A stretch of DNA of 64,000 nucleotides from Marsupella aquatica (Eukaryota; Plantae; Marchantiophyta), in contig OZ316891.1 of NCBI GenBank assembly GCA_973895155.1, positions 20,596,169 to 20,660,168 on the forward strand, in the 5' to 3' direction. Made by a program: the position numbers and the translations under genes. Of the stretch, positions 15,776-59,300 are shown in pieces. The first letter of the stretch is position 1. Each line of letters begins with the position of its first letter. A model generated the notes under the pieces. It made no database searches, was not told the origin of the DNA, and was given only the letters and a program-made list of their open reading frames with translations.

Positions 15776-17526
15776 ATGAAACAATCACGAAAAAATGTTT
15801 TTTTTCAAAACTTCTCATAAAACTCAAAAATCAACACCGCCGCGTACCCCACGAAGCTAGGAGTCCAATACTGAAAGCCGAAATCAAAATCAAAATTTGA
15901 CGGAAAAGTTATTCAAATTTTGGTCGGGGTGGGTAAAACCTTGGGAAACTCCCCCGTTTTGACCACCTCGGAGAATAACCAAAATACCCAATACAACCCG
16001 TCGTCGGAATCGCAATGCGATTGGTGCGCCGCGTTGCCAACTTCAATGGCTACGTCCTTGTCGAAAAAGAACCAAAAAAGTTATCGTTCGGCGGACAGAA
16101 TCTTTGTTGGACGGCCGAAAAACAGCTCTTTGTTTTTTGGGAATATTCACGCATAGTCTGACAGGTCTCATAGGGGGCTGTTCCCCCTGTCGGAGCGGTT
16201 AAAACAGAGGGCGGCAGGTCCTGGCACCAAGTAAAACAAGAGGAAGCGAAGAGGAGGAAAAAGAGCCAAAAACAGGCCCTAAAGGGATGCAAAGCGCTTT
16301 AAATCCAAAAAATACGAGTATAAAAAGGCGGGCCAGGGGGTGTACAGGGCGTCGAGGTGGGGGCCGGGAGTAAAATACGTCTGCGTACGCAGCCAGAGAC
16401 GGGGTCCCGGGAGCGTACCGTCACCATGCGCTGTGGAGGGGCACCGACAGAAGGCAGGCGCGAGGTGGGAGAACCGGGGGCACAAGGCGAAGGCAGGGCC
16501 GGCCGACGGAGGGAGTCCCCCGGCTTATGCAGGCAGGTGGAGCGCGAGGCGGTCGGCTGGCAGCCGGGCGCAAAACGGTGTTAAGGGGGGGGGGCGAGGG
16601 CATGGCCTGGGTGACCGACGAGCGGGGAGGGTATGGTCGGGGCGCGCGCCGGTCGGCACTGCGGACCCCGCCGTTATAAATGGGGTGCGGGGAGGGGGGG
16701 AGGGATACAAACACAAGGGGGGTGCGGGGGTGTGTATACACACGAATATAACCCTTTAAACCCCCCTATAAAGGCAAAAAAACTCCCCCGGGATAAGTGA
16801 AAGAAAAACTCACCTAAAAAGCCGTTGTTTGATCCAAAGAAAGTGAACGCCGCCGATGGTAAATATTTCCGAATTTCACCGGCACAATCTGCAGCTCCAG
16901 CAGAGTAAACAATTTCCGTCGCGTTGCCTTCACTCCGCGTCAAGTGCCAATCCCGGGTGTCACACCATTCTAGGTAGTGTTAGAGTATATCGTACTATCT
17001 AGATCCATATGTTTGGTATATGTGCTATATGAGCCGATAAGGTTCTGTCAGGTTTGTGTGAGAGGGTACTTCTCACTTGTGAGGCATTGAAAGGTCATCT
17101 TTCAATGTTGAGCCTAGGAGAGAGATGAGCTTGAGTGTGGCTATGGTGGCTGGGCGCTTCGCTTGTGTAACGTGGATTCCTTGAGTAGTGCAAGCTAGGT
17201 GCATTGGCTTGACATACGTGTGTGATCGGATCGGTGCGGGATCAATGGGGTATTGTTGACCGGGATCGTTGTGCCGATTGTATTGAGATTACATTGAAAG
17301 ATCAGGAGCTTCAAACTCTGTTGTGTGGACAAAAGCTCAGTCTGAGTTTGTTGTTGACGATTTGCGGTAGATCAAATCGATTGGAGCTGTTGTTTTGATC
17401 TGTGGTACCTCGGATCGTGGAGTGGACCGCTGGTATTTTGATTTGCTCTAATCGGTGTTGAGAAGTTTGTGCCTGATCTGTGCTGCCATTCAACGGACAG
17501 TATGCTGCTGTTCGCGTTTTTGTGAA

Positions 17527-17692
17527 GTAGATCGGGCCTGCATCATCATCGTATGTAGATCTGTTGGGCCGATTTGCTGTTTTCGCAAGGGAAACAGCCA
17601 CAGATGTTGGTAGATCAGGCCTGCATCATCATCGTATGCAAATCTGTTGGGCCGATCTGCTATTTTTGCAAGGAAAATAGCTGCGGATGTTG
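17527..17692. repeat. Tandem duplication, 2 x 83 bp, in the gypsy leader
   Basis: gtagatc.ggcctgcatcatcatcgtatg...gatgttg at 17527 and 17610. Confidence 0.9.
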
Positions 17693-18188
17693 TTGAATCG
17701 CACAACGACACCGCCTGTGTAGCGATTTCCAGAACTTGCACGCCAACCTCTGCGTTTTGTTGAAGAAATAGAACTTTGAATGTTGCTATTTTGGTAGCGG
17801 ATGCGGGCTGCTGCTGATCAGAGCGCGGAGGCACTATCGCCTGCGTGTTTGTGAAGGGGAACGACTCGGGATTGTTGCCCATTTTGCGAGGGCTGGATTG
17901 CGGATTCGCTATGACAGGACAGTGCGTCGACGCGCTGCATTTCTGTGAAGGAAACTCGAGGCCGAAGTGTGGACGTTGTTGAATCTGGAAGTTGGATCCG
18001 GCGTAGCGGGCGTGAAGGGCTCACTTTGTGGCTCATCTCGGCATTTAGAGGCTTCGAGGCAACTCGGGACGAGGGGCGTGAGGGCGAAGCAGGAGCGGGC
18101 GGGCCAGCAAGCCAACTTGCTAGTACGTGAGGAGAATTGCAAGTGCTGTCATTTTGGAGTGGCAGATTTGGTGCATAATGACAAGTGA

Positions 18189-18256
18189 GAGGTCACCCAT
18201 CCCAAAGCTATTCCTCCCCTCATGCGCTTAACTAGCAAGTTCTTATGTGGTGCATT
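18189..18256 (-). promoter_or_regulatory. 5S rRNA-derived internal Pol III promoter core (box A to box C), not a full 5S gene
   Basis: + strand gaggtcacccatcc-N22-cgcttaact-N4-agttct-N5-ggtgcatt matches the reverse complement of plant 5S rRNA (GAGGTCACCCATCC-N22-CGCTTAACT-N4-AGTTCT-N10-GGTGCATT). The 5S ends are absent. Confidence 0.85.
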
Positions 18257-21200
18257 GTACATGCTTCCTTCCACACTTGGTGTCCAAGGAATGAGGCCCT
18301 AGGGGTTTTATGCACTTTTGAATTCATCTAGATACTCTATTTTAGCTAGTTTGCGATGGATTCTTGAATATTTGACGCAGGATTCTTGAGGCCTATTATG
18401 AAGGCCCTATATTGAACTATATGCACATTATTTTCATGTATTTCTGATTGATTGGTGTGGAGAGTTGTGGTAAATCCTCTTCTTGTTGTTGGATCCTCTC
18501 CACACATGCTTCCTGTTTATGCGCCATGTTGGTTTGGCGTGGACGCTTGATTCTATAGGAGTGATTCGGGTTTGCAACCGGACATTCTAGTTGTGCTACG
18601 TATTTCTCTCCTGGTGATGTTGGAGTGATGCCCAACACACCATGGTGAGTGCTTGTGTTGTTGACAAGGACAGATTGCCCTTAGGGTTAGCATATAGATT
18701 AGGTTAGATTGGTCACCACGGATTCTTCTGGTGCTGCTGGGTTACCCGATGGACGACGGACCGGTTTCACTTGGAGTGGGGCGCAGTTTTGGCCAACAAC
18801 ATTGGTAGCAGTCAGCAGCACAACTTCAAACAGTGATTCTGACGAGGACTCTGTGAGCAGTTCTCCTTGTCATCAGGTGATTGCACCTTTGTTGTGGGAT
18901 ATGGACAAGATGTACGGGGCTACAAAGGGCCCATGACGATACTCTGGTGCAGTTGGCACAATTGATCTGGATGACTTCATCCAGGAGTTTGATACGTGGT
19001 GCGATATGCAGACATTGCGTAACGCCATGTTGTTTACCCCTTTCATGGCATGGAAAGGATTATTCCAGCATTTGGAGGGGCCACCCATGGATGACTACCA
19101 TGAGTTTTGGAAGGCTCATTTGGTTGAGATTGAGGCATGGAGGCAGCATTGGTCGCCTAATTATGTGTCCATCACCTATTGCACTAGTGCGGCTGCCCAA
19201 CCCATTGCCACAGCTGTTGCTTCTTCTAGCAGCACTAGCCAGAGTGGCACACCATCCACCAGTAGCACTCCAGCAGCATCCATCGCTACTCCTACCGGTG
19301 TGATTGTGACAGGAATTGGAGTTGCGCCAACATTTAACCCTATGGTGGAATTCTTTGAGGTACTGAAGCAGACCTATCAGGGTGTGAGAACTGATAAGTT
19401 GAAGGGTCTCCAGGAGTTCCAGCGTAAGACTGGAGAGAGTCTACGTGAGGCATACACTCGTATGCGCAGATTGATCACTATCACCAAGGGAGTGACAGAG
19501 GCTCAGGCAATCCAGTTTTGGTATGCGATTCTGGACAAAGAATTGCGACGCAGAGTGAGAGATGTCACTCTACTTAGGGATGCAGATCCCACATTAGCAG
19601 TTGTTTTTACCCTTTCTCAGCGCATTCAGCTCAATATGGTGAATGAGAAGGTGGTGATTTCTGGATTTGCCAAGGAAGCACCAAAGGCTGCATCTACATC
19701 CACACCATAACCTACTGCACGGAAGAGCCAGAGGGAGAAGCCTGCTGGACGAGAGTCTACCAGCCAGAGACCTGTGCCCTCTTATGCTGGACAGCAGTCA
19801 AGATGTTGGACCTGTGGTGGGGATCATGCACAGAGATATTGTCCAGATCATAGAGGATCAGGGGGAGCATCAGCGCCTGATCAATGACAGTGTGATCATT
19901 GTGGAGCTCCTGGACACACCAAGGATAGGTGTTTCTCACTCCACCCTGAGTTACGGAGGGGAGGATCCCGTACACATGATCAGGGAAGAGGAGGAGGAGG
20001 TAGAGGTGGTGGACGTGGTCGTGGTCGTGGCATGCCACATGCAGGGAGACAGGAAGGTGACGCTGCCCCTACTATAACCATAAATCCAAATGATGCTAAG
20101 ATTGCTCAATTGGAGCAACAACTAGCTGCCATGGCTAGTTCCCAGGTGAGACCTACTTCTAGTGATGGGGCATCTACATCCTATGGACCTTCCACATCCC
20201 ATGGTCCTTCCACATCTTATGGAGCTGATGGAGACCTTGCCACCATGGGATTCATGTGTGGCACTGCACATATTGATGCATCAGCAGCGTTGACACGTGG
20301 GGCAGCCAAAGCTCTTGAGCCCCGAGGAGCAGTAGTGGAGTTAGATCCATAGAGGGAGGATGCACGTTGGCAGACAAAGCTTCCTCAGTCTTTTACATTG
20401 TCAGAGATAGTTCAGACTGTCTCTATGAACCCGGTTCGGACAAACCCTAATGTGGGTAAGTCGGCAGAATCAGGTAGTGATGCAGTAGGGATGACAGGTA
20501 CCCTGCTGGGGGCGGCTACTGCCATGGTACGCACCCCATTATTTTCAGCGACAGACATGCTGAACTTGGGAGTTGGTCTTGCAAAAGTGTTCAGATTGGC
20601 AGCTATACTCTGTGAGGACACTCCAGTGGTTGCTTCCCATGCAGAAGCAGCTTGCAGTGTTGAAGCAGTGAAATCCATGCCACCTACTACTACTAGTGAG
20701 ACATGGCATGTAGCAACAGCAAGGTTGGTGGATTTACCAGCACGCCCTGCATTTGAGAGGACTAGGTTTAAACCTAGTGTTGTGTCATTGGATAATCGAA
20801 GTGGTATCTTCCGATTAGTTGGGCCTTCTTGGGCAGTATACCAGCCAGAGAGAGTGTTACTGGATACTAGTGCTCAGCCCTTGATGTTGGGTAAGTCTGC
20901 CATACGTGGGTTGGGATTGCATCCAGAGGATTTGGAGGATTGTCCCTTTCCCATTCAGACTTCATTGGGGGGACCTACACCTACACAGCACATTACCAGG
21001 AGACCTCTTGATTTGAGGATTCAGGAAGGTCATACCACAGATAACTCACAAATACAGGCGCGAGCTATTCTGACTAAGGCAGAGTCATATGATGTGTTGG
21101 TGGGATGTACAGTGCTCTACCCCATGGGATTTATTCTTGATTTTTTGGAGGAATCAGTGTCATATAGACCTGATTGGCAGTCAGGAGATGCTTGATTGAG

Positions 21201-21567
21201 CAAATTGCCAATGAGATTTAGTGGACCTATGGGAGGCCCTAAATCCACACCATTGTCTTTGGCAGCATTCAGTGGGCTAATTGTTGGACCTGATGATTTG
21301 ATTGAGGGTAATGTGCATGCAGCAGATGTTCCACCATTGGAGGAGACTCATGAGGAGCACATCATGCAGGGATTCCCTGTTGGCAGTGTTGTGCCACCAG
21401 TGTGGGGCATTGCATAGACCTTGCCACAGGAAGCAGCACGATTGGTACATGATGCATGGCGTCATGCTTTTACACCATAGTCAGGAGCAGAGCAGTCTCT
21501 TGCAGATGGACCGGTGACTCTTTCACCATTGGATACCACTCCTATTGCTTGGCAGTATCCACCGGAG

Positions 21568-22490
21568 GGTATTTGTTTGTTGGATCGTTTTGGTGGGATT
21601 AGCACTAGATTGGCTGTTGTTCTTTAGGCAGGAATTCTTGTGCGTTGTTATTTGTATGTGGAGACAGATGAGACAACACGGAGGATCTCATTGCAACATG
21701 TGGCTATGTTGGTGGATAGATATCCACAGTTGCTGCTAGTGGATGCTGTTCGTGGTTATCAGCATGCACTACCTACTGATATTTCATTACTAGGGGCGGA
21801 TCATCTGCATCGTGTTGGCCCCATTGATTTGGTGATTGCTGGTTGGCCATGTTAGGGCCAATCTAGAGCTGGCATTGGGCATGGACTTCATGATCCACGC
21901 TCAACACTATTTTGGGAGATGTTACGGGTGCTGCGTCATCTCCAGCTACATCAGACACAATCTCCAACATACATTTTGGAGAATGTGCCATTGTTAGGTG
22001 ATGATCGCAGTCGGATTGTTGCCAGTGTTCACCAGGTGAGGTCTTGGATTGGACCTGCTGTGTTATTGGATGCTACACATGTGGGTTCTCGTGCACATCG
22101 TCCACGCTTGTGGTGGACCAATTTGATCCCATGTGAGGTGCTGAAGCGCGCATTTGACAGCATTCCACGCTCACCAGCCTTAGTGGTGGATGATATTTTG
22201 GATCCAGAGCATCGTGCACAGGGTGTGACCCAACCTGATAGACCTCCATTGGCAATGGTCAATCCACTCTTGTAAGCCATTCTGCTTCTTATGCATTCAG
22301 AGCAGGTGGCCCTGGACTTGTGTGGGACACAGCTCTCCAGCAGTTAGTGGAACCTACTGCTGATGAGAGAGAGCGTGCTATGGGATTTTTGACTAGCACC
22401 ACTGCAGTTGCCTCTGTGTTAGAGGGTTTGCGACGCTAGGTTCTTGGTCAAGCAATGGATCTGAATTGTTTAACTTGGATTATCAGCTTG
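21568..22490 (+). pseudogene. C5 cytosine DNA methyltransferase domain within pol (between AP and RT)
   Basis: Motif I LLDRFGGIST (~21580), motif IV GPIDLVIAGWPC*G (PC 21847-21852), motif VI ILENV (ENV 21979), motif VIII RAHRPRLWWTN (22090), motifs IX/X ERERAMGF...RR*VLGQAMD (~22365-22460), in canonical order. Confidence 0.92.
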
Positions 22491-25400
22491 GGAGTAGCTG
22501 AACAGTTGCGGATGCGCTCTGCTGAAATTACTGATTGTCCCTTGGTGAGCTTGCGGTCCACTGAGACAGTATTAACCACAGCTGGGGGCGAGCAGACAGT
22601 CCATGGACCTATGGCAGGATTGGCCAAGGCTGGACAGATTGTTGAGCAGGAAGGGACTGCTCAATCTACTACTAAATAGCAATCATCGACTATCTTTTCT
22701 ACCCTACAAAGATATATTAGGGATTTGGTGGAGAGTTGGGAACCACAGCTTGGCCCTAAGTTGACAGGGGAGGAGAGACGTCGCATGCATCGATTCCTGA
22801 AGAGTTACTGGAATTGTTTTGCATTTAGCATGAAGGATTTGGGGACATTAAAGGGTCCTGGTATTCAGATTGAATTGGCTAGTAATGCGCCAATCTTTCG
22901 TAGGCCATACCGTTACAGTGACATGGAGAGAGCTTTGATTCAAAGCAGAACTCAAGATTTGTTGGAGGCTGGATTGGTGGAGATTTCATATGGGGAGTAT
23001 GCATCTGCCACAGTGATGCCAGCCAAGAAGGATGTGCATGGCAATTACACAGATAGGCGCATGTGTGGTGATTACATACCCATTAATCGCCAGACAAATC
23101 TGATAGATATGCCATGCCCACACTTGAGGAGATATTTGATGCTGTGGGGCATGCAAAGGTTTTCAGTTCATTGGATCTGAGGGCAGGGTATCATCAGCTT
23201 CCAATTAGGCATGCTGACAGGTCCAAGACAACATTCTAGGGGATTAATTCTTATGGCAAAGATCGTTTGTATCAGTGGTTATTCTTACCATTTGGGTTGA
23301 AGAATGCACCAGCTGAGTTCCAGAGAGTCATGGATCGAATCCTTGCAGGTTTGGATTTTGTCAGATGTTATATTGATGATATTTTGGTCTATTCTTCTAC
23401 TATGGAAGAACATCAGCAGCACTTGCAAATTGTGTTGGAGAGATTGAGAGCACATGGGTTGAAGCTCCATCCTAGCAAGTGTAAGTTCTTCCAAGACCAG
23501 ATTGAGTATTTGGGCCACACCATATACCCAGGGGGATTGGGTGTACAGCAGACTAAAGTGGAGGCCATTACACAGATTCCTTGTCCTACTGATGTGAGTT
23601 TGTGCATTCTTGGGATTTGCGAGCTACTACAGGAGGTATGTTAAAGGATTTAGCCAGCTTGCTAAACCTTTGACCATACTCACTAAGTTGGATCATGAAT
23701 GGATTTGGGGTGATGACCAGGAGCATGCCTTTCAGGAGTTGAAGCAAAGGTTGGCATCATCCCCTGTTTTGATAAGACCCATTTCAGGCAGACCATTTTA
23801 GCTACACACTGATTGGAGTGGAGTAGGACTTGGAGCAGTGCTGACTCAAAAGGATGATGAGGGGAATGAGTTTGTTGTGGCTTATGCCAGTAGATCAAAC
23901 AATTCAGCAGAGGCTAAGTATAGCTCTTATGAGGGAGAGTGTTTGGCAGCAGTGTGGGCTGTTGCACATTTTTGTTGCTACTTGTTTGATAACCCTTTCA
24001 CCTTGATCACTGATCATCAGCCTCTTAAGTGGTTAATGGAGTCTGACAAGCTTACAGGGAAGCTTGCACGATGGGCATTGTTGTTACAGGAGTATGATTT
24101 CCAGGTGGTGCATAGGCCTGGAAAAGTGAACTTGGATGCAAATGGATTAAGCCGGAATCCATGTACCAGTCAGCAGGATGAGACTGGAGCCAGATGGCAT
24201 GATGAGTCAGATAAGGAGATGGTGCCAGGATGGCATGCATCTGCCTTTCTTTGTTGGGTGCCAACATATAGTGGATCTGTTGACTCTACCTCATTGGATG
24301 GAGTGGATGAGGAGTCTTTAGATGTGGATGTTGGTGAGGTAACTTTTGGATAGCAAGATATTCACAATGATGTGAGAGTGTTGGAATATCTGCGCAGTGG
24401 TTCTATTGTTGGCAGTGTTGATGCCAAAGAACGTGACAGGGTTCTACATAGAGCCAAGAGGTTTCGATGGGAGGGAAACCATCTTTTGAGAGTACTGCAT
24501 GATGGTAGGGTGTTGGTGGTACCAAAACCATCACAACGAGTACATTTGGTACGACATGCACACGAGGAGTTGGGGCACTTTGGTGTGAAGCGCACTTATA
24601 GCTTGTTGCAGACACAGTATTGGTGGCGTCGTATGCACACTCATGTCCAGCAGTTGATAGCTAAGTGTGTGGTATGTGATAGAGTGAGAGCATCATTTAA
24701 TGCTCCCACTCCCCAGTTGCACCCGTTGCCGATCATGGGTTTGGGATATCGTTGGAGTTTGGATTTTTCTGGTCCATTACCTCTTACCCAACGTCATAAT
24801 CGGTATGTTTTGGTCATGGTGGAGCACTTCTCCAAGTGGATTGAGCTAGTGGCATTGCCAGATAAAGCCAGTGGAGGAGTTGCTGCTACATTTTTGGATC
24901 GTGTACTCAGTCATTTTGGAGCACCAGCTGAGGTGTTGACTGATCAGGGAACTGAGTTCCGTGGAGAGTTTGAGAGTTTGTATGAGTCACAAGCTCTGAT
25001 TGATCATCGTACTACCTCTTGTGATCATCCTAAGGCAAATGGATTAGCCGAGAGAGTTGTGCAAACTGTAAAGAGAGGATTGCGTAAGTATGGCTTGCAG
25101 GTTGGTCATCTGGGAGATTGGGATCTCCAGCTACCTTGGTTAGCTATGGGCTACCGTTTTAGTCGGCAAGCATAACTTGCATCATTTTCACCTTACTTTT
25201 TGCTCTATGGTAGAGAGCCAGATTTGCTAGCAGCTATTCGTCATGATGCTGCACCAGTTGTGAACTTGGATGATCCTGATGTTTGGGTCAAGGTGTGTTC
25301 AGAGAGAGCACGGGTATTTCAGAGAGTGATGCCCATGGCTTTTGACAACGTTGCCATTGCCCAACATCGTGATACTTTGAGGTATGCCACTATTCGTGGA

Positions 25401-25661
25401 GGAGGTTATCGTGCAAGCATTCGATGATTTCATCCTAGTGATTATGTTTATTTGCAGCAGACAACACCCACAACACTTGATGTGACCACAGGCCGGACAA
25501 TCTTACGTGTGCGTGAAGTGTTGCCTTCTGGTGTCCTGATGTTGGAGGGACGCGATGGTATGGTTTGGAAGGATCAAGTGCGCAACTGTGCACCATGTCA
25601 CCTTCCCAACATTGATGGTATAGTAGATCCAAGCTTGGCACATGTTCGTGCTGGCTTGAAA

Positions 25662-25799
25662 TGTATGTTGTGTGGATCTGCTCAGGGAGCAGCTACTATG
25701 TTGATTTGTGATAAGTATTCTAGAGAATGGCACATGTCATGTTTGACACCACCATTGCAGGTGATTCCTAGTGGATCATGGTTGTGTCCTCAGTGTCGG
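25662..25799 (+). other. PHD finger at the integrase C-terminus
   Basis: CMLC-x11-CDK(Y)-x4-HMSC-LTPPLQVIPSGSWLCPQC, a C4HC3 pattern with one Cys apparently mutated (TGT>TAT). Confidence 0.9.
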
Positions 25800-26635
25800 T
25801 GAAGCCGACTAGTTATCATTTGTGTTCTCTTGGCAGATATGGATTGCAGGTAGATGATCGATGAGGCTCACTTGCACCCGGCCTCCTGATCTTCACACCT
25901 AAAAAGGTGTATATCAACCTTGTAGAACTCATGGCTAGCTAGAGTTAGGGGACCTTACTCCCAGCTAGAGGGGCGATTGTGGGTTTTGGACATGTGTGGA
26001 CATGAGTTCCACTTGTATTCCATTCTCTTGTGTTTGTGATATGGCAGTGTGACTATGTTTGGATGTATGTGACAAGCGATGTATGTTGTGTAGCGATGTG
26101 TATGCGCACGACATGGGCTCAAAACAACCGTCTCGCCACGATCAAACCGTTGAGCCGTAGCACTTCGCGTTTCTTCCACCGAGTAGGACGTCACGAAGAG
26201 AAACCCAGTTCAGATGAGAACAAGCTCTATAGCTTGTGAAAAAACCTGAACGCCTCCTTCACTCGTCACGACGCACTCGATAACAACTCGACAACAATTC
26301 AGCTACCGAAATGACCAGCTCGCTTCAAACTTCAACTTAAGCTATAATATGCAATCCCTCCCGCACCGCACGGCTCACACCGTTGAAAAAAACAATCTCT
26401 CGTCTCTCCCCCCAAAAGCCGTCGAACACGAATAAAACCTGAACGACGCAAACTTCAATTCCTCCGCACCACGGATACCAATCAGCGAGTTCTAACCACC
26501 GTTAGAAAGCCCTCTCACTAACTTATTCGCTCAGCCACACATATTTGAGTTTCATGCGACAAAACTCGAAATATACCATCGACAACGAACGCTAGAAAAA
26601 CCTGTCACAAAAAAACCTCGTCACCTCCCAGGCAT

Positions 26636-26647
26636 GCTCTGATACCA
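26636..26647 (-). promoter_or_regulatory. tRNA-iMet PBS (copy 2, the native PBS followed by the copia leader)
   Basis: Minus strand tCAAG-TGGTATCAGAGC-atgcc, followed by leader sequence running toward gag-N. Confidence 0.9.
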
Positions 26648-27305
26648 CTTGATACTACGTTGAGAGCATAACCTTGACATCACAATATGTCATCATCATC
26701 GAGTAAATCTACCTCATGCGAGCTCGATGCCGCGTTAGCAGAGGCAGTAGGGACCTTTACTCGACAATCCCTTTTCATGTGGCCAGGCTTGCCACAATTC
26801 CAACATGCAAGAGGCTTCCTCTCTTGCAATTTCCCTCTGGATTTAGATCTCCCCTATTATGTAGATCTAAACCTGTTCTGCCCATTTGTGCGCTGCGCTG
26901 CTCTTCCCCTATTCACATTGAGCGTAGTGCCAGAAGAAGATGCTGTCTGTGATTGACCCAGCTTTTTCTGAGCATCATCAGACAGTAATGAGCTCATCAC
27001 CTCATTATACGAAATGGACTTCAGATCTCTATACAAGAACACCTATTTCAAGCCCTAATATGATGGCAGTAAGGAGCTTAGCAAAAGCAAGGCCTTATCC
27101 TCATCTTCAACTCATTTTCCCAGGTTTGACAGATCCACCGGTAGACTGTCAAATTCATCCAGGTGATCCTGCATCTTGCTCCCTTCCTTGAGCCTGAGAC
27201 TCATCAAGAGAGACTTCTTGTATAGCCGGTCTAACGCATCTTCCCGGTAGCACTTCTCTCTTAGAGCCTTGAATAGTGACGCGCAATCTACATAATCATC
27301 TAGCT
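26648..27305 (-). pseudogene. Copia gag, C-terminal piece
   Basis: QLDDYVDCASLFKALREK...LRLKEGSKMQDHLDEF...EDEDKALLLLSSL...GRSKSRGK...CWNCGKPGHMKRDC...YALNVVSS. Confidence 0.9.
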
Positions 27306-27317
27306 GCTCTGATACCA
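27306..27317 (-). promoter_or_regulatory. Ectopic tRNA-iMet PBS (copy 3)
   Basis: Minus strand tCAAG-TGGTATCAGAGC-agctagat, between + strand protease and - strand gag-C. Confidence 0.9.
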
Positions 27318-27320
27318 CTT

Positions 27321-30293
27321 GACTGGATTCTAGATAGTGCATGTACTTTTCACATTTGCTCTAGGAGAGATTGTTTCAGTTCTTACACGGTTTCCAACGG
27401 GTCAGTGTTGATGGGAAATGGAATCCCATGTCAAGTTGTTGGACTTGGATCTGTAAGATTTCAGATGTTTGATGGTGCTATGAGAACGTTGAGGAATGTG
27501 AGACATATTCCCAGCATGATGAAAAATCTTATTTCATTTGGAGTTTTAGAAGCAAATGGCCATCAGTGGAGTTCTGCTAACGGTGTCCTTCAGGTTTCAA
27601 TTGGTACTAAAGTTGTATTGAAGGAAAAAAGACATTACAATCTATACGTTTTGGAGGGCAGTGTAGTCTGTGATGAAGTCAATATAACCTTATCTCATGA
27701 AGAGACGGCCCGGCTGTGGAGCCCCTACTCCCTCACATTCTGGACGGTTATACTATGTTACGTTCATAGACAATTACTCAAGATATGTGTGGATATACTT
27801 TCTACACAATAAGTCTGATGTTTTTGCCACTTTTAAGAAGTGGAAAGCCAAGTAGAGAATCAGACTGGTAATAAGGTGAGATATCTTCGATCGGATAACG
27901 GCGGTGAATACATTTCCAGGGAATTTGGAACGTATTGTAAAGAGTAGGGGATTACCCGCCATCTCACAACAAGTTATACTCCTCAGCAGAATGGTGTTTC
28001 TGAGAGACTCAACTAAACACTATTGGACCGCTCGAGGAGTATGTTGAGTCAATCATGCTTACCACATGAGTTTTGGGCTGAAGCTATCAACACTATAGCT
28101 TATTTAGTAAATTTTTCTCCATCCAGTTCTATTGGATTCAAGACGCCATTTGAAATGAGGTACGGGCATCCAGCAGATTACTCACATCTGAGGATTTTTG
28201 GATGTGATGCTTATGTGCTTACACCTTTCCAGCTTCGATCCAAGCTGGAGTCCAAATCGAAGAAGTACATTTTCCTTGGCTATCAGAAAGGTGTGAAGGG
28301 TTATAGGTTATGGGATCCAGTAACCTGTAAACTAATTGTCAATAGAGATGTGTCCTTCAAAGAATCCAGATCATCAAAGGAGGGGGAAATTTCTCAGGAC
28401 TCCCATACTGACAAGGGGAAATCTCCCATCTCGAACCGGGTTGAGGGGGAGATTAGTCATGATGCTGTTCATGACAGGAGAGATGGAGAAGCTCCGGGCT
28501 TGGAGCTGGTTCCTATGATGGAACAAGAGGAGCAGATTGTTGCTGGGGTACCTCAAATTCAACCAGCAGCAGCAGATCAGCCTAAGTCATCTACTAGAAA
28601 AACTTCCAGTTGTTCTACTAGAGCTCCTACCAGGTATGGTCAATGGGCAGACTCATCTAAGCTAGATGATATTGACATTGCATCTGATGATGATGACATG
28701 ACTTTGATCTTGGAAGAAGGAGAGTCTTCTTCGTATAGTGAGGCTTGTGCTTCAGAACATAAGGATGAGTGGAATGCAGCAATGCAGAGGGAATTGCAAT
28801 CTTTGAGTAACAACAAGACATGAGAGCTGGTGGAGCTTCCAAGAGGTCAGCAAGTGGTGGACAGCAAATGAATTTACAAGTTGAAGGACAGTCCTTCAGA
28901 GGGTGGAGATAAGATCTACAAGACAAGGCTTGTTGCCAAGGGATTCACTCAGGAGAAAGGAGTGGATTACAATGAGGTCTTTTCACCGGTGGCTAAGTAT
29001 TCCACAATTCAGATCTTGTGTCAACTTGTTGTGTTTTTTGGTCTGGTGATGGATCAGATGGATGTTGTTACTGCTTTTCTCTATGGCAACTTGGAAGAGT
29101 TGATCTTCATGAGACAGCCACTAGGCTTTATGAAGAAGGGCCAAGAGAACTTAGTTTGCAGATTGCTTAAGTCCTTGTATGGATTGAAGCAGTCTCCCAG
29201 ATAGTGGAACAAGCGGTTTGATGATTTCATGCTTGCTCAAGGTTTTACAAGGATGGTGTATGATCCTTGTGTGTATACGAAATCAGTCAAGAATGATGTG
29301 TTTGGTTTCATCATTCTGGTTATTTATGTGGATGACATGCTGATTGTGGCTAAAGATCAATGTGAGGTTGACAGTCTCAAGGCGAACTTGAGTGTTGAAT
29401 TCAGGATGAAGGATCTTGGTAAGGCCAAGAGGATCTTAGGGATGGAGATTTTTAGGAACTCTGAGACTGGACAGTTGTGCTTGAGTCAAGGCCAGTATGC
29501 GAGGAAAGTACTTGCACGATTCAACATGGAGAACTGTAAGCCAGTGAGTATTCCTTTAGCATCACATTTCAAGTTATCATCGGCTTTCTCTCCTACGGAT
29601 GCTGTGGAGAAAGGTCTGATGGCTAAGATTCCTTATGAGAAGGCAGTAGACAGTCTGATGTATTTGATGACTTGTACTAGGCCTGACTTGGCCCTAGCGA
29701 TGGGCAAGGTTAGCAGATTCATGTCAAATCCAGGGAAGGTACATTGGGAAGTTGTGAAATGGATTCTCAGGTATCTCAAGGGTACACAGGACTATGGATT
29801 ACTATTTGATAACATATCAGATAGAACGTTAGTTGGCTATGTAGATTCTGACTATGAGGGCTATCTGGATAGAAGGAGGTCTACAACTGGGTTTGTATAC
29901 ACTCTTGGAGGAGGATGTATCAGTTAGAAATCTACCTTGCAGAAGTGCATATCTCAGTCTACTACAGAAGCAGAGTATGTTGCAGCAGCAGAAGCAGCAA
30001 AGGAAGCAATTTGGTTGGACAAGTTGATCGTGGAGATGGGTTTAGAGCATGGCAAAATGACTCTAAAGTGTGATAGTCAGAGTGCTCTTCACTTGGCTGC
30101 TAACCAGGTGATGGATAGTAGGGTGAAGCACATTGATATCAGGTACCATTTTATCAGGCAAACAGTGTCTGATAAAACTTTTGAGCTAGTCAAGATTGAT
30201 GGAAAGCTCAATCCCGTTGATGCCTTTACCAAAGTGATTCCTTTGGAGAGTTTCTCAAGACACCGTGCTACTTTGCAGGTTTTGCAGTTGTAG
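27321..30293 (+). pseudogene. Copia pol (PR-INT-RT-RNase H), disrupted
   Basis: [77 protein letters not shown] (~29325), STTEAEY, KHIDIRYHF. The integrase HHCC region appears deleted near 27720. Confidence 0.95.
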
Positions 30294-30994: not shown

Positions 30995-31678
30995 TTGGAT
31001 GGGTCTATTTTAGGCTTTCAAGGAAGAAAAAAAAGAGAGGAAAAACGGGGGAAAAAAGTTGCATATGGGTTTACTTTCGACTTTCAAAGGAAAAATAAAA
31101 TGTGAACTGGACAAAGAGAGAGTGTGAAGTACAAACGAATCTTTCAAAGAGATCCCCAGAAAATCATTAGTGCCAAAGCCACCAGAAATTGGAATCTGTG
31201 AAATCTCGAGTCCGCATATCCAACAATCTGGGCAGTACGTTGTGTGCTTTCTCGTGCTGATCAGTCCAATCGGCTACTCCATATTACTCAAGAGTCCACC
31301 AGATTTCCAGCAGCTCATCAATCGATCGATCGATTGATCAGGAGTATGTCATTCGACTATCGACGAGCTCATTACTATGAATCAGCTTTTCGCCGGCTGT
31401 CAAGCAATCAGCAGTTTCTCTGCTCTCAATCACTCAAGGACCTCTCAAAATGAAGCATCCCGTGTGTTCAGAAGAGGCAGGTCTACGTACATTAGCTATA
31501 TGCCCAGATATTAATTCTTGGGGGGGGGAGGAACGTGACCGAGAAGGAAACGTGTTCACTGTGTCGGTCGATTAGTTGGGTTTCCATTCAATACCATTCT
31601 CTTTGGCTGGGAGAACCGAAGAAATTCTTGAAGTAGGCTAAAGAAGGGATCTGTCGAAGTGGTGGGGCAAAGAAGGGC

Positions 31679-33808
31679 ATGCTGAGCGGCAGCAGAATTG
31701 GGTTACTGGCGACTGTGGTGTCATGGCGGCAGAAGATCATCATTAGCAGATCCCTCTGTCTGCGTTCTTCGCCTTCGCATTCACAACCACCGTCCCTCTC
31801 CACTTCTCAACCTTTTAATCCTGTTCGCCCCATTTTTAGGGTTGGTTTCAGCTTCAATTCCAGCCATTGCTTCTCGCCGGATCAGTGTTCGTCTTCATCA
31901 TTCAATTCTTCGTCCCTGCAGCAGAGGACGTGGAGAAGCAGGAGAAAATACTCAGTGAACAGCTTGTTAGTCATTTCAGTTCCGAATTTCAGCACCAGGT
32001 CGAAGACGGGTGGTACTTCATACCATGCTGCGCCATCAGCACTGTTCTCGCCTCTATGGTCTTCCTCGGTCATTCTCAGAAGAATTGGAATGGGACATCG
32101 GCAGCGGCAGCGTAGGAACAGGACGACTAGGGCGAGAACCCAGGAACAGAATACCATATCTGTCGAGGCAATCGCCAGCATTGACGATCCAGAGACAGAC
32201 TTGAACCAGAAGAATTCATTGCACGAGGAATTGGAGCGTTATGGAGTTCATGAATCTGATTACAAGCCACAAGAGATGAACGAGCACCAACCATCAAGAG
32301 GAAGCAGCAGCATGCGTAGGAAACGGAAAGCCACTACAGATTTGTCCAACGGCAGCAAACAGCAGCACACTCCTGCGAAGGGAAAATCTGACGTGGTGCA
32401 AGACTGGTGTTGCTATCTTCTCCTCTCTGTGGATTCAAAAAAGACCTATGTGGGTGCCACGTTTGATATCAAACGAAGGTGAGAAAGAAGGCAGTTCAAC
32501 TAAGACATATGGTGCAACGTGATAAGTTGTAGATTTAGTTGCTGGTCCTTGTAATAGTGAAAAGCAAGGAAATCTTTTAGTTTGAATCGGGACAGCATTG
32601 ACGTTATCGTTGTGGTAGAACTCTAGCTTTGAAGCTGATGTTGATGTCGAGTCATAATAGCAGCAAATGTCATTTGAAGCTGGGGAAAGAATTGCTGGAA
32701 CTTGTGAACGAAGAAGCTAGGGAGGAACCTGACTGTCAAAAAGTTTGATGTCAATCACAACAGTAGCAGTTAGGAAGTCAGAAGTGAGTTGAAGGGGATG
32801 TAGAGGACGTTCTAAACTATAAGACTCCGATTTTGAATTTCTTACCAGATGAAGTTCATTGTTTGCAGGCTAAGGCAGCACAACGGAGAGATTTCAGGTG
32901 GTGCTAAATCTGCACGGGCGGGGAGACCTTGGAGACTAGTTTGTACCGTACATGGATTTAACTCACGCAGTGAAGGTCCATTCCCCGTTAAGACTCTCTC
33001 TTCGAATTCTTTCCAGAACTTTTGCCTGAGTGACGCTTTTCAGAAAATGTGCTGGCATGTAATTCATACAGTGGACTCTTTCAACACAAATCAATGCTAC
33101 ATGTAATTCTACCTTCGTCGTGCTCATATATACGGAAGGCACTGCACTGCACCATGTCCAACCGACGTTCTTTAACTGGTCTTCGATCCCTTCCCTTCTG
33201 CCTGGTGTGCTCTTTTTTCATTGGATTTGACTTCGCGTCAACTATCACAGGCACTCTTTAGTAAGGTCTCAAAATCTGATGTTATGATTGAAAATTGTCC
33301 ATTTGAGGATTGCCAGTTAAATTAATCTTGTGGGTCTGTCTCCGGCTGTTTTGCCTAGATCCACACTTCCTATTATCCACAATCTAAGGACTTAGTCGCA
33401 CTCGTGTAACTTGTCTGAGTGTCGAGTCTAAGCAGTTTAGGGGCATTTTCCAATGGACGCGTCTTCACTTTGACTCGACAAAGCACGAAGTTGGGAATTG
33501 TAGGTTTCAGAGTATCTGGGCTCATTTTGTTGGCTAGTCAGGCAACTTCAGATGTTGTTTTTATTCTCGTCGCAGCAAGTGCCATCAGTTTGACGATTAC
33601 GGTCCTAACGATCAGCACTGATGCCTCTACAGCTTGTCAGTTTGAATGGAGATGGAAAGCAACTGCAGCAAAATACAAAATTATCGTACGACGGGACTCG
33701 GAAACTATGGAATCACCTCTGGTCACACGCAGAAGGGCAACTCTGGCCAAGGTTCTTAAAGCGCAAGAAGAGTGGACCTATCTCAACGTTCAGTGGCATG
33801 CTGATTAG
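31679..33808 (+). CDS. SLX1-like GIY-YIG endonuclease, 3 exons (31679-32478, 32869-32975, 33633-33808)
   Basis: WCCYLLLS..KKTYVGAT.DIKRRLRQHNGEISGGAK...GRPW...HGF..RSEACQFEWRWK across GT-AG introns. Long S/R-rich N-terminus, so the start codon is uncertain. Confidence 0.88.
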
Positions 33809-34920: not shown

Positions 34921-35781
34921 TGCAAGGCACAAGCATTGTGTATGTTTAAATCACAATTGTCCCTATAAAGAGCTACAAGTTACCTATAGCTTTCAGTATA
35001 AGTACACAGGTTCAGGAATGGGCTTGAGATTCACAAACTCTGGTGATGGTGAGTGCTTCACGTTTTATTTTCAAGTGCAAGTGCTCCACCTTTTATGTGA
35101 GAGTACCCCACAAAATTATCAGACTACCCCACAAAATGTTACACAGGTTCAGGAATGGGGTTGAGCTTCACAAAATGTGGTGACTGCCTCACCTTTCATT
35201 TGCAAGTGCTCTACCTTTTATGCGAGACTACCCCACCAAATGGGGTTACTGTTTCACCTTTTATTTGCAAGTGCTTCACCTTCAATGTGAGACTACCCCG
35301 TTCACCACACAGGAATGAGTAGTGAAGTAGTAAATGGGGAGTTTATATAGGCAGGTGTGTGTTAAAGATTTAACAGATCACGTTAATGTGTACATTTTTG
35401 TGCACAGCACTAGCATAGGGTATGCGACGATTTTGTGCCTTGGCATTGGATCTGCTTAACACTTACTATCTACATATTCATAGCTCAACATCACTCAATG
35501 CCAATAACATTCTGCAGGTCTATGATAATATTGTGCAAGGCATTGGGCTTGTTGACCATAAATATTAAGCTTTGATTTGCCATATTCATCTTGTGCTTGA
35601 ATAATTGAGACAGCGTCTTCGAGCTTTGTCGAGGCAATCAATGTAAGTGCTACAATGCTCTAAAGTGGGGACCGGTCTGGCGGATTGTTGCCGCCTTCCA
35701 AAATTGGATTTTCTTGAGGGTGAGCATTTTCCATCTTCGGTACACGTTATGAACTGTTAATTTCCATCTTGAGAGCACGTT

Positions 35782-36495
35782 ATGACACTCTCCACTCAAT
35801 CTCCTTGTGCATTCTTGGAGATTGCTTGCTTCAATGTCCAATCGGTGCTGGTGGCTGACATAGGCGGCGCGGATCGTATCGAATTTTGCGCCAACAGAGC
35901 ATCCGGGGGTGTGACCCCGACTCTGTCGGTCCTGCGGGAAATCAAACTTAAATGCAAGAAACCCCTACATGTCATGATCCGTCCAAGAGGAGGAGATTTT
36001 ATCTATACAGATGCGGAATTTGATCAGATGAAGGATGACATACGCAACATTATGATTCTTGGAGGCATTGCCAGTGGTTTCGTGTTTGGAATTTTGGCCG
36101 CCAACAGCAGCCAGGTCGACCAGAGAAGAAATGCAGAATTGGTAGCTCTCGCACGTCCGCTGCCATGCACGTTTCATCGAGCATTCGATGAGCTGCAAGA
36201 TCTCGGAAAAGCCCTAGAAGACGTCGTTTCTTGCGGGTTCAAAACGATTCTCACTTCTGGTGGAGTATCCGATGCTGTTGCTGGGGCTGCAGTCCTGGGT
36301 AGCTTGGTGTGGAAGGCCAGGGGAAGGATCGCAATTATGCCTGGTGGAGGTGTAAGATCATCGAATCTCCAGCTCCTCATGGGCCAGACAGGAGCCGATT
36401 GGTACCACTCCTCAGCAATTTCAGATTGTGGTGAGGACGCTGATGAGAAGGAAATAAAACGACTCACAGCAGCTTTGAGGGGATTTGCATCTTGA
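35782..36495 (+). CDS. cutC: CutC family copper homeostasis protein (TIM barrel), intronless
   Basis: LEIAC, GADRIEFC, GGVTP, VMIRPRGGDFIY, GFVFGIL, CTFHRAFD, ILTSGG, IMPGGGV, HSSA. Intact 237-aa ORF. Confidence 0.95.
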   Translation: MTLSTQSPCAFLEIACFNVQSVLVADIGGADRIEFCANRASGGVTPTLSVLREIKLKCKKPLHVMIRPRGGDFIYTDAEFDQMKDDIRNIMILGGIASGFVFGILAANSSQVDQRRNAELVALARPLPCTFHRAFDELQDLGKALEDVVSCGFKTILTSGGVSDAVAGAAVLGSLVWKARGRIAIMPGGGVRSSNLQLLMGQTGADWYHSSAISDCGEDADEKEIKRLTAALRGFAS

Positions 36496-49034: not shown

Positions 49035-50091
49035 CTACTGCGCGGATGGCTCCCAGCCTGAGGGTGCAGCAGGGGCGGTTTCCCAACCTGATGGGGCCAC
49101 AGGGGGTGGCACAAAGGCTGGTGGAGCAACAGAAGAAGCGTCCCAACCAGCAGGAGGTGCAGGAGCCACCCACTCAGCTGGCGCACCGGGTGGAGGAATG
49201 ACGGGGGCAGGAGCAGGCGCACCGTCGGCCTCCCACTGTCCAGGATCAGCACCGTCCCATTGTCCAGCATCAGCCGTCAAAGCAGGTGGAGGCACATACT
49301 CTGTTGCGGTGAACTCTGGTGCACCCGTTTCCTCCTCCTCCCTGTCCTTGGTTTCATCAGGCTCACGGTAAAAGAAGAGATCGACCATCACTTCCCATGG
49401 CCTGGTCGGGGTGATTGTTCCGCGCATCTGCAGCACCATCCTTGCCAACAGCCAGAACAACGCTCCTATGCTGTGCTTGCCCTTGTTATTCGCGGGGATA
49501 GCAATGTCGACATGACGCATGGGAGAGTCGGTGTCACAGAAGGCGATGGTGGGAATGTTTCCGAGCGCCGCCTCTCTAATAGGCTGCACGACCAAAATTC
49601 ACCGAATGAGCCCCTCCCTACAATCCAACAAGAAACCCAGACACAAGAGCAGCGAGAAAGAATAACTCTAGACCTAAACCCAAAGACATCGACGAAACCC
49701 ATACACGCACCTGATGATCCGTTCGGGGGTCAGTCAAAATCAACAAGCGGGGTTCGCTGAAAGTGTTCTGCAGCTGATTAGTGAACGTCCCGGGAGTGTG
49801 TCGCCCAGCGATGGCCTGTGCGCCAGTGTACTGCGCGAACTTCAACACCGCCCTCTGCCCGTAAGGCCTCGCGGACTGAACGATGATATCCTGCGGGTTC
49901 TCAATCGCCACAATCACCCTCGCAGCGAGCTGCAGCTTCTCCCACGTCTTGCCGAGGTTGATGATAAAAATCCCGTCCGTTCGGCGGCGCCAAACGTACC
50001 GCTCCATTTGGAAATCGCAATTCTTCGTGCCAAGATGCACGTCTGCCGCAAGCATCATCTGCACATCCTGCTCTCGCTGCGTGAGCACCAT
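49035..50091 (-). CDS. RPSA: 40S ribosomal protein SA (uS2), 2 exons (50091-49711, 49583-49035)
   Basis: [22 protein letters not shown]...[12 protein letters not shown]...[11 protein letters not shown]|[21 protein letters not shown]...VDLFFYREP plus W-repeat tail. One 127-bp GT-AG intron. Confidence 0.97.
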
Positions 50092-50290
50092 CTTGCAAGT
50101 TCGATAGCTGGCTCCCGGTGTCTGCTTCTTGCGTAGGTTGGTTGCAGGCGAATCGATCGATTGATCGACCGTCTGACGAGAGAAAAACGGACGAAGCTCG
50201 AGACGAGAAGAGGAAAAGAAGGCAGCAGATCGCCAATCTGCACAAAAGGCACGAGACGTCGAGAGTGCGAAAGTATGTACAGAGAAGAAG

Positions 50291-56332: not shown

Positions 56333-59300
56333 TTATGCAGCAATCCTCAACATCTCAGATGCCACCGCTGCTTCGGTCACCAAAGCCACTGGAAGTCTCC
56401 CTTGCAGGAAGAGAGAAATATTCAGAGGCCTAAGCACCATTCCATCAAATATTAAATTCACTCCTGGAAGTGGTACATCACTACCGTCATCGTCCTCTAC
56501 ATAATCCATCTTTTGCACTGAGGAATCTGGGTTTGCAGGCACCTCCCCTGCCCCTTGTTGGGCCCCCTCAATAATTGGAGGTACTGGTAAGGAGGGTAAC
56601 CTGAATACGTACCACTGTTCCTGTTAGTGAATTTAATAAATGCATCATTTCGATCAATGATAGCATGTGAATCTTGCTGATACAATCAAGTCTCCTACAA
56701 AACAGCTTAGCAAATCTCCTACAACTGGAACAAATAGGGCAAGAGTCGAAGAAAGCTTACGGGAAAACTTTGCCGTCAATTGAAAACCGGACAGTGGCAT
56801 CCGAATCGGATGGACTTAGCGGTGAAGATGTTGGAGAATATATAGGATCAAACATTCCATCAGAAGGATTCCACTTTGAGCTCGCGAGACTGATCAGAAC
56901 AGGTTTGTTGCCAGACTTTGACGGCGCACCTGGATATGCTAGTCTTGAAATTGGGCCATTTGCCTGATAGTCAGATATAAACTCTCGAAGTTTCCGCCGC
57001 AACTTTTGCATAGCTTCTCGATGTTTTGACAGAGTACTACTTTGGAATAGCTCAGACCGAACTGCTCCATCGCAAACCAATTTGCAGAGCATTGTGTCAA
57101 AGAGTGGTAGTCCAAACTCCACACTTTGTGGAATCCACTCCCAATCATTCTCATTTGGCAAGCTCGTCACGGCACCTGTCGCCTTGCGAACTCTAATCAT
57201 GTGGATGTATCCCACTGTATCCAAATTTAATTCGTCAGCTACATCCAGTAAAGAGGTGCTCGGTTGGTACATGTACGAAGCGTCCACTGCCTTCTCAGTT
57301 TCGTCGGATGTGTTGAGTACATTCAGATCACTCAGGGGCAGAGGGGCATTCTTTGTCAACACAGATCCGTTTTCATCAAGAGAGGACATTGGGAAGGGCT
57401 GGACGAGCACAGCCGAGAACTTCAACAGAGAGTTAAGGCAATGCAAGAGAATCCGACCTTCAACCAGAGAGCCATCAAACTTTCCTCCAATGCCACTCAC
57501 TCCAACTCCGTCCCAAGCCCACACTAAAGCCTTAGCACACCCTGCCAGAGGAGGAGGAAGGAGTCTTAGTCTCTGGCCTTTGATGAGAGCAACAGAAACC
57601 GGTCCCGATCCAGATACTGAATACAAAAGGAGCTTCATCCACGGAGTTATGGCAGCCCGACTTGGTGGACCAAAGTGGACAGGCCCAGAACCATCAGCTG
57701 AAACGACTGATGGAGGAGAGAGGAGAGGAATCATGGACACGACCACGTCATAGTCACGTCGCAGAACCCTGTGAATGGTTCCAGGAGATAGACCCTGTAA
57801 GCTCTCCACACGCAACACATCCACACGATACTTGCGTCCCGACTTCTTGTTGCGAGATTTTGTACGCCCAAAAACATCTATGGCAGCTGAAGCGCTCGTG
57901 GATTGCATTGTCTCAGGGCCGATGTCAAAAGGATTAGGTCTCTCATCCTCATCAGCGGGCTTGCTGCTAAGCACTTCAAAGTTGAATAAATCATCATCAG
58001 GTTCCCTAGATTTTCCTTGCAATTCAGTAGAGCTATAATCTAAGTCTACAGGCTTGAAAGTCAGAAGACTGTCAAGGTGAGGTGAACTGCTGAGACCAAT
58101 GGCACTTGGACCAAGCTGAAAATCACCCAGCTCAGTTCCTGACTTCTCTGGCGACTCCAGATCAGGCTCCGCATCTACAGTATCCAAACCTGTTAGACCA
58201 GTTCCTCCAGATCGAAGGCATTCCAAGGCAAGGCGAAGGCTGAAGGCATGATTAGCGAGCTGCTGTAGCTCTCCCTCAAATTTTGTACCCTCAACTTGGC
58301 GCAAGTCTTCGCACATTTCTGCCACATTGGAGTCACCTAGCTTTCCTGCTTCATAGAGTGTCACAGCATGTCCCTTGAGACCTGGACAGAGTACAGGGGA
58401 ATGGGCTTCAGAACATGAAGACAATAACATAACTTTTTCAATTCTGGTACATTATATCGTAGCGTGTTGTATTTATCGAATGACAAAGGCCATGAAATCG
58501 AACACTTGTGAATGAAACTGATGTCAATGTCTAGAGGCATGAGACCCATAAAGCCACAGCACGAGTATTAACAGAGCATGCGCGCAGGATGGTCATTAAA
58601 CCATCAGTTCTCTGTGATGAGGATCTATAAACCCCAAGAAAGCTAGCTTATCAAATTCTGACCCGCAAATTTGAACAAACCACAATATTGAAGGTGCTCT
58701 GAAACTTACCCGGTGACAGCGAGCCCATCATGAGATAGGATGTGAGATTTGCATCAACCATGAGAGCAAATCGTGTGATCCCAGATTGAGATTTTATAAC
58801 ATCGCCATCTGCTTCAGGCATGCCCTCCTGAAATGGACTTGGTGGCAAGGAACTGAGTGATCTGAACCCATCGTCGGCAGCACTGTCCTCACTTAGCGGA
58901 GATCCAGGCACCAGGAAGTCGTTCAGCAACGAAGCAGGGTCCAAAACCTTTTTGGCCCATCCCAGTCGGGAAGCCAATGACACAGCAGCTTCCAACTGGG
59001 ACAAGTCAGCCTGCAGAGTTTGTGCCAGCTCACTAATTGTTGCTTGCTCACTCGATGCAACAAAAACAGCATACAGAAGTCTGTACAATCATACAATCGC
59101 TCCATTAGGGATAAATCCATTGGCAGGAGTGGAACATGTTTTTCTCTCGTGTATCTTGCACATCTGAATTCATGAAAGTCCACGTAGAAAAGAGTCACAC
59201 AGCCAGGCCATGAAGTTAAGGTCAAACAGACATAGCGAAGAGCAAAGTTAAAAACTATTGTCCTATAGGGTCTGAGAAGTCTGCATTAGACTTCAATCAA

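Follow-up and report, generated by a model that had tools for sequence, protein, structure and literature searches.

The 64,000-nt stretch of Marsupella aquatica DNA analysed here (the window, in whose coordinates all positions are given) contains a dead Ty3/gypsy element of 9.2 kb (16958–26113), with a DNA methyltransferase (DNMT) domain between its protease (PR) and reverse transcriptase (RT). The gypsy order Gag, PR, RT, RNase H (RH), integrase (IN) is present, as are other hallmarks of that group (TG...CA termini, a polypurine tract, and a short target duplication). The full order is Gag-PR-DNMT, a stop codon, then RT-RH-IN-PHD. The features mapped are as follows.

16954–16957, + strand: left target-site duplication CGGG, preceding the TGTC terminus and paired with TGGG at 26114–26117, with one C-to-T change
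16958–17300, + strand: 5' terminal repeat A1, beginning TGTC like the A1 of relatives; its end is inferred from their ~340-bp A
18901–22679, + strand: ORF1 (Gag-protease-DNMT), with 10 premature stops and one frameshift, collinear with the full-length proteins P0293, P0272 and P0271
19804–19932, + strand: two Gag zinc knuckles, seen directly in the translation
20773–21195, + strand: aspartic protease (LLDTSAQP, Asp at 20863), placed by alignment to relatives
21565–22505, + strand: DNMT3-like C5 cytosine methyltransferase domain, motifs I–X, broken at 21625, 21853, ~22264 and 22437
22677–22685, + strand: in-frame stop, TAG CAA TCA, in a readthrough-type context; conserved in 37/37 distinct relatives
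22684–22787, + strand: weakly supported stem predicted in the RNA downstream of the stop, with a similar one in Sphagnum-type loci and in L044
22680–25802, + strand: ORF2 (RT-RNase H-integrase-PHD), with five premature stops and two frameshifts, ending in TGA at 25800
25662–25796, + strand: PHD finger (PF00628) at the integrase C-terminus
25967–25976, + strand: polypurine tract, from its sequence and a position matching that in relatives
25978–26113, + strand: 3' terminal repeat B (TG...GACA), matching B of locus L052 (E=3.5e-5); locus alignments stop at 26113–26115
26114–26117, + strand: right target-site duplication TGGG, with one C-to-T change relative to CGGG

ORF2 matches the Pfam models RVT_1 (1e-34), RT_RNaseH (5e-35), Integrase_H2C2 (3e-15), rve (5e-11) and PHD (2e-8). 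The protease of this copy has no Pfam match, while those of relatives match aspartyl-protease models. The best solved matches to the PHD finger are CHD4, KDM5B, PHF21A, ATXR5, KDM5A and UHRF1; the fingers of CHD4, KDM5B, PHF21A, ATXR5 and UHRF1 are readers of unmodified H3K4, and the ADD domain of DNMT3A would offer a parallel. No ordinary identical LTR pair occurs within the 64-kb window. A1 has no second copy there and no sequence match to the A of relatives, and the A2-B2 part present in many relatives is missing. Dating by repeats is impossible because only A1 and one B are retained.

With its stops written as X, the segment 21565–22272 matches PF00145 (E=1.2e-10; 41.8 bits, against a curated cut-off of 22), so that the Pfam search called for in the original prediction bears out its claim of a C5 cytosine methyltransferase between protease and RT. 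The motifs, whose numbers we take to be those of the general C5-methyltransferase scheme, run unpermuted in the order I, IV, VI, VIII, IX, X. Motifs I (FGG, ~21589), IV (WPC, Cys at 21850), VI (ENV, 21979) and VIII (RxR, 22099–22107) share the protease frame in an intronless domain, as first described, and motifs IX (ERERAMGF, 22365) and X (LGQAMD, 22443) lie downstream of a frameshift near 22264, at which ~10 codons have been lost. The copy is indeed dead, with a TAG directly after the catalytic PC (21853) and further premature stops at 21625 and 22437. The attribution of its stops to decay holds for these positions within the DNMT, but not for the TAG at 22677, which is a conserved ORF boundary.

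The resemblance to DNMT3 noted by eye was also recovered. Of 35 solved sequences matched by the M. aquatica domain, DNMT3A, 3C and 3B are the best (best E=7.4e-9). A profile built from the DNMTs of six relatives scores 85 bits with DNMT3A and 48 with the next class (structure 4onj, presumably a DRM), followed by HaeIII (38), DRM2 (36), HhaI (35) and a tRNA methyltransferase (26); motifs I to X are collinear. Judged by score only, DRM, DNMT2 and bacterial enzymes are more distant from the element domain than DNMT3 is. DNMT3A also ranked first for a low-confidence AlphaFold model of the DNMT of relative P0006, with a mean pLDDT of 55 and the TRD region unresolved. The catalytic sequence and the motif order are shared with animal DNMT3A and with the DNMT3 that non-flowering plants encode as a host gene (PMC6453930), but the element domain is embedded in a Gag-PR polyprotein, and a Pfam search of the M. 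aquatica copy and its relatives found no DUF3444, PWWP or ADD alongside it. DUF3444 is the marker domain of host plant DNMT3 (PMC6453930).

With the DNMT piece as query, 26 longer proteins were found at 34–82% identity, including 16 from Marchantia, two from Calypogeia and two from Sphagnum; no vascular plant is named among the 26, which is weak evidence of absence. A profile search gave 454 representatives with the DNMT at E≤1e-30, and in viral contigs there were 38 pattern matches and no relatives. A metagenome scan yielded 69 related loci, mostly from one family matching named Sphagnum proteins. The DNMT is followed by RT in 44 of them, and the others end, are interrupted or are deleted at that point. 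Among distinct copies covering each site, the catalytic Cys is kept in 48/48 and the ENV Asn in 51/51, although these motif counts are biased by the selection of the loci for DNMT motifs, and copies lacking the domain could not appear. In L012/L014 and L065, insertions of ~800 bp break the DNMT-RT linker or the DNMT end, and a second copy resembling the insertion lies further down the same element.

Liverwort, moss, Closterium and Klebsormidium elements all have the DNMT at this position, and with relatives in Marchantia, Calypogeia, Sphagnum, Closterium and Klebsormidium the domain is not an isolated insertion into a family otherwise without it. Such elements were first described as no standard part of the gypsy lineages of land plants; the DNMT element is abundant in bryophytes and groups with KnitGypsy-Dnmt3. 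Many hypothetical PF00145 gene models of Marchantia, Calypogeia and Sphagnum are this element and not host DNMT genes. The hypothetical Marchantia models P0011, P0293, P0294, P0300 and P0301 correspond to its ORF1, several of them on the V chromosome, and may have been miscounted as host DNMT genes.

The domain was originally placed inside pol, in one continuous gag-pol. It was found instead to close the Gag-PR ORF, with the stop at 22677 preceding RT. From the 69 loci, 67 could be aligned to L016, representing 53 distinct copies, of which 37 cover the junction codon, each with a stop there (26 TAG, 11 TAA), while the next in-frame column reaches only 6/16. Seven other columns with 100% stops were set aside, lying beyond a frameshift of the reference locus L016. 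Although the rest of the linker has diverged, the stop can be aligned in four lineages: AAA TAG CAA TCA in M. aquatica, GCA TAG CAA CCC in the Sphagnum type, ACG TAG TAG CCA in L044 and CAA TAG CAA CCA in L059. In all three lineages with RT on the contig it is in frame with RT and 48–60 bases upstream of its WEP start. P0271, the nearest relative, has its last codon directly before 22677, and five Marchantia proteins of 1,278–1,281 aa, complete in their motifs, stop 98 residues past motif X, without RT. Decay as the origin of this stop is ruled out by the conservation in 37/37 copies together with natural proteins that end there.

The sequence around the stop resembles the tobamovirus (TMV) readthrough motif UAG-CAR-YYA (PMC3159437, PMC2754532). 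The match is exact in the M. aquatica copy and L059; 34 of 37 Sphagnum-type copies have CAA-CCC, one base off the motif, and L044 has TAG-CCA. CARYY occurs at 0.9% of positions in the M. aquatica element. As in the tobamovirus type I case, an in-frame UAG followed by CAR-YY would separate an abundant product from the polymerase (PMC3159437, PMC2754532); A at -1 and -2 favours readthrough of that type (PMC3159437), and the short TMV product is ~10 times as abundant as the readthrough product (PMC2754532). The rice gypsy element RIRE2 is also a candidate for readthrough (PMC3159437, PMC2754532). The putative readthrough stop here differs from these systems in following protease and DNMT, not Gag, and in the CAA-CCC of the Sphagnum type. 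From its presence in 37/37 copies and in two further diverged lineages, and from the TMV-like UAG-CAR-YY context, readthrough is considered likely. The predicted stem after the stop is a weak hint only, with z from -0.4 to -2.4 and 3/34 control windows at -2.0 or lower.

It is also conceivable, if unlikely, that an enzyme with the same role is made and that RT-IN is expressed by splicing out the stop, by reinitiation, or from a separate start at a downstream ATG. A candidate donor, GTGAGY, is found in ~37/43 Sphagnum-type copies covering the site and in the M. aquatica copy, and both have a pyrimidine run and AG after the stop, but in both lineages the first AG past the run is out of phase with the donor, and L044 and L059 lack such a donor at that site. 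Some NCBI gene models (P0013, P0025, P0030) fuse DNMT to RT by skipping the linker, but the stretches skipped differ. Reinitiation could make use of the ATG that comes next (+7) in 36/37 Sphagnum-type copies; in the M. aquatica copy, however, there is no in-frame ATG between the stop and the WEP start of RT. Retention of a single in-frame stop with CAR-YY amid linkers that have diverged is as expected under readthrough.

Not all of the lineage depends on the stop, since relatives with PR-DNMT-RT in one ORF exist within the streptophyte group (P0376, P0445, and P0388/P0440 of Closterium). Two other proteins, GAQ93235.1 of Klebsormidium nitens and P0418, end directly after the DNMT; given GAQ93235.1, Klebsormidium may share the ORF break.

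In relatives the direct repeats are split, in the order A1 (~340 bp), internal region, polypurine tract, B1 (~113 bp), two bases, A2, B2. The full B-A-B is found in six loci (L011, L031, L052, L056, L065, L067), three of which (L031, L052, L065) have A1 on the same contig. Four distinct loci have B alone, as in the M. aquatica copy. The short form A-internal-B (L016, L019, L023, L028, and M. aquatica 16958–26113) coexists with A-internal-B-A-B, and in L028 and the M. aquatica copy it has an intact target duplication; it may arise by B1-B2 recombination or by integration of a one-repeat circle. Target-site duplications of 4 bp were found in 5/5 loci checked with both ends, and insertion is therefore by integrase. 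An origin of the layout by random opening of a 2-LTR circle is not favoured, with B found upstream of A1 in 0/15 distinct left ends.

A more divergent relative, P0031, used as query gave 219 proteins. In all 120 matches listed the DNMT follows RNase H, precedes integrase or both, and 80 of these have a complete RT-RH-DNMT-IN-PHD. Named among the matches listed are the chlorophytes Monoraphidium, Haematococcus, Tetradesmus and Enallax and one bacterial MAG label; the latter (P0178, labelled Minisyncoccia bacterium) is an algal-type RT-RH-DNMT-IN-PHD polyprotein and likely mis-binned eukaryotic DNA. Among the matches listed, the PC motif has lost its Pro (reading EC or SC) in 75 of the 100 proteins of this chlorophyte branch in which the motif was found.

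An unrooted FastTree reconstruction of the DNMT (95 rows from 273 full domains, with 20 near-duplicate or gapped bryophyte proteins dropped and 48 RH-DNMT-IN and 25 unclassified rows sampled) separates the PR-DNMT from the RH-DNMT-IN forms with SH-like support of 97. The M. aquatica domain falls among bryophyte proteins within a PR-DNMT group of 25 rows that includes Closterium and GAQ93235.1. An unrooted RT tree of 32 rows has the same split at 99, so the two trees concur. Two domain positions across green plants indicate long retention.

The closest published system is KnitGypsy-Dnmt3 of K. nitens (de Mendoza et al., 2018; PMC5890265), of which GAQ93235.1, with the order Gag-PR-DNMT, appears to be one of the elements described. 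The two share gypsy domains, an intronless and unpermuted DNMT3-like domain, purifying selection, and a repeat layout A-coding-B-A-B, described as DIRS-like for KnitGypsy-Dnmt3 (PMC5890265, legends to Fig. 1e and 4c). The M. aquatica element is placed in this lineage because of its relatives' split direct repeats and the trees, but as a variant and not as KnitGypsy-Dnmt3 itself, because the conserved stop separates DNMT from RT and RNase H. In the text and review file of PMC5890265 the KnitGypsy DNMT shares the Pol ORF with RT and RNase H, whereas the bryophyte domain is at the end of ORF1. The M. aquatica and bryophyte elements also differ in having land-plant hosts, and the M. aquatica element in its PHD finger after the integrase, a domain absent from the text of PMC5890265. 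That text never names Marchantia or Sphagnum.

Other systems are more distant. SymbioDIRS-Dnmt3 of Symbiodinium is also a retroelement with a DNMT3-like domain and split direct repeats, and its domains are the only such ones shown to be active, methylating CG de novo in yeast (PMC5890265), but it is a tyrosine-recombinase DIRS element, in contrast to the DDE integrase and 4-bp target duplications of the M. aquatica element. The EpiLTRs of Cymbomonas and Euglena are LTR elements combining a DNMT with a chromatin reader (bioRxiv 10.64898/2026.05.21.726589); theirs is DNMT4-related and accompanied by DAM and a chromodomain, as against DNMT3-like and PHD here. A literature search by element name returned only PMC5890265 and this preprint, in which 'streptophytes (Gypsy-DNMT3)' are cited. 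The search, which left most subscription papers outside its range, found no publication on land-plant or chlorophyte members of the lineage or on the stop, and the text of the REXdb paper (PMC6317226; Phygy, Selgy, Tat, chromovirus) is without methyltransferase or homeodomain. The kind of element is thus published, as KnitGypsy-Dnmt3; what is new is its occurrence in land plants and chlorophytes with the domain in two positions, as well as the conservation of the stop and the target duplications.

Between the M. aquatica copy and six loci, dN/dS is 0.15–0.22 for DNMT, 0.16–0.21 for RNase H and 0.06–0.12 for RT, with dS near saturation, and saturated against L044 and L059. The DNMT domain is under purifying selection between lineages and does not evolve neutrally at this level; the signal within families is weaker. 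Variants shared among Sphagnum-type copies have N/S of 0.34 in DNMT vs. 0.07–0.10 in RT, RH and IN, from unequal copy sets. With matched sets, dN/dS within the family is 0.7–2.0 in every domain (the reference frames of IN and PHD being broken), and it was discarded as carrying no information on selection. There is no signature of self-methylation by CpG content: o/e is 0.32 in the M. aquatica element and 0.30 in a neighbouring copia element, and with adjacent elements at the same level CpG depletion was dropped as an indicator. C-to-T loss among copies is 20% at CG, 22% at CHG and 6.5% at CHH, as host silencing would give.

The interpretation considered probable is of a dead gypsy element of the KnitGypsy-Dnmt3 lineage with a DNMT3-like enzyme at the end of ORF1, in which the conserved stop is likely read through; surplus enzyme would enter the particle and likely methylate new cDNA. 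There is a good chance that most ribosomes would stop at the UAG, giving Gag-PR-DNMT (~1,280 aa), with a minority reading through to RT-RH-IN-PHD. Coming before a leaky stop with Gag and PR, the enzyme would be made in excess and enter the particle at the level of Gag, i.e. in excess over RT. An enzyme produced in capsid amounts, as the conserved stop suggests, would be expected to act within the particle. There, PR would probably free it, and the cDNA would be methylated before or at integration; as first proposed, we infer that the cDNA or the insertion site could be the substrate. That the PHD finger would steer integrase to chromatin with unmethylated H3K4 is favoured only slightly. A new copy would then arrive pre-marked like host DNA.

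A decidedly unlikely alternative is that the domain is kept for another role, such as nucleic-acid binding or protection in the particle, methylation of genomic copies or competitors, or damping of the element's own activity; self-limiting roles are among those listed for element DNMTs in the Discussion of PMC5890265. CpG loss no greater than in copia would fit this, as would the replaced Pro in 75/100 chlorophyte-branch proteins with the motif among the matches listed, and the KnitGypsy DNMT gave no methylation in yeast, in a test its authors deem inconclusive (PMC5890265). However, the catalytic Cys, ENV and RxR are retained throughout the land-plant branch, and the related SymbioDIRS-Dnmt3 domains do act as de novo CG methyltransferases (PMC5890265). 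That a fragment of a host DNMT3 was captured just once, or that the domain is a passenger decaying neutrally, is highly improbable: the M. aquatica copy is dead and within-family dN/dS is near 1, but the position shared by liverwort, moss, Closterium and Klebsormidium elements, the between-lineage dN/dS of 0.15–0.22, the 454 representatives at E≤1e-30 and the lack of a match to DUF3444, the host plant DNMT3 marker (PMC6453930), all argue against it.

The benefit to a transposon of encoding a cytosine methyltransferase has been an open question since 2018, and neither known carrier, Symbiodinium or Klebsormidium, is easy to study. In the genetic model Marchantia polymorpha, full-length ORF1 proteins that retain all motifs occur naturally, which makes activity, sequence context and the effect on transposition accessible to testing. 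A broader reading is tentative and somewhat doubtful: an ancient green-plant gypsy lineage with split repeats, a DNMT3-like writer and a PHD reader would predate the chlorophyte/streptophyte split; the land-plant writer would be encoded together with Gag, ahead of a leaky stop of the TMV type, so that particles would hold many more methyltransferases than RTs and all new copies would integrate methylated; and part of the bryophyte methylome may be the work of live Marchantia copies.

In the neighbouring copia element (26636–27317, 27273–30290) a gag-like segment runs on the minus strand, against PR-IN-RT on the plus strand, with a tRNA-Met primer site in reverse complement at 26636–26647 and 27306–27317; it looks as if it carries an internal inversion. 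Elsewhere in the window are the start of a GIY-YIG nuclease host gene (31637–32482, +), a host gene for ribosomal protein SA (RPSA; 49035–50136, -) with one short intron, and a FAM91 exon of 563 codons (56757–58451, -) with 50–55% identity to its best matches. In a quick tree of this exon with 27 of the 120 matches listed, none of them a named liverwort or hornwort, it falls outside the groups of mosses, ferns and seed plants; the RPSA, FAM91 and CutC genes mark the host as a land plant. An intronless ORF of the CutC family (35773–36495, +; PF03932, 4.5e-58) resembles fungal CutC by eye and could reflect gene transfer.
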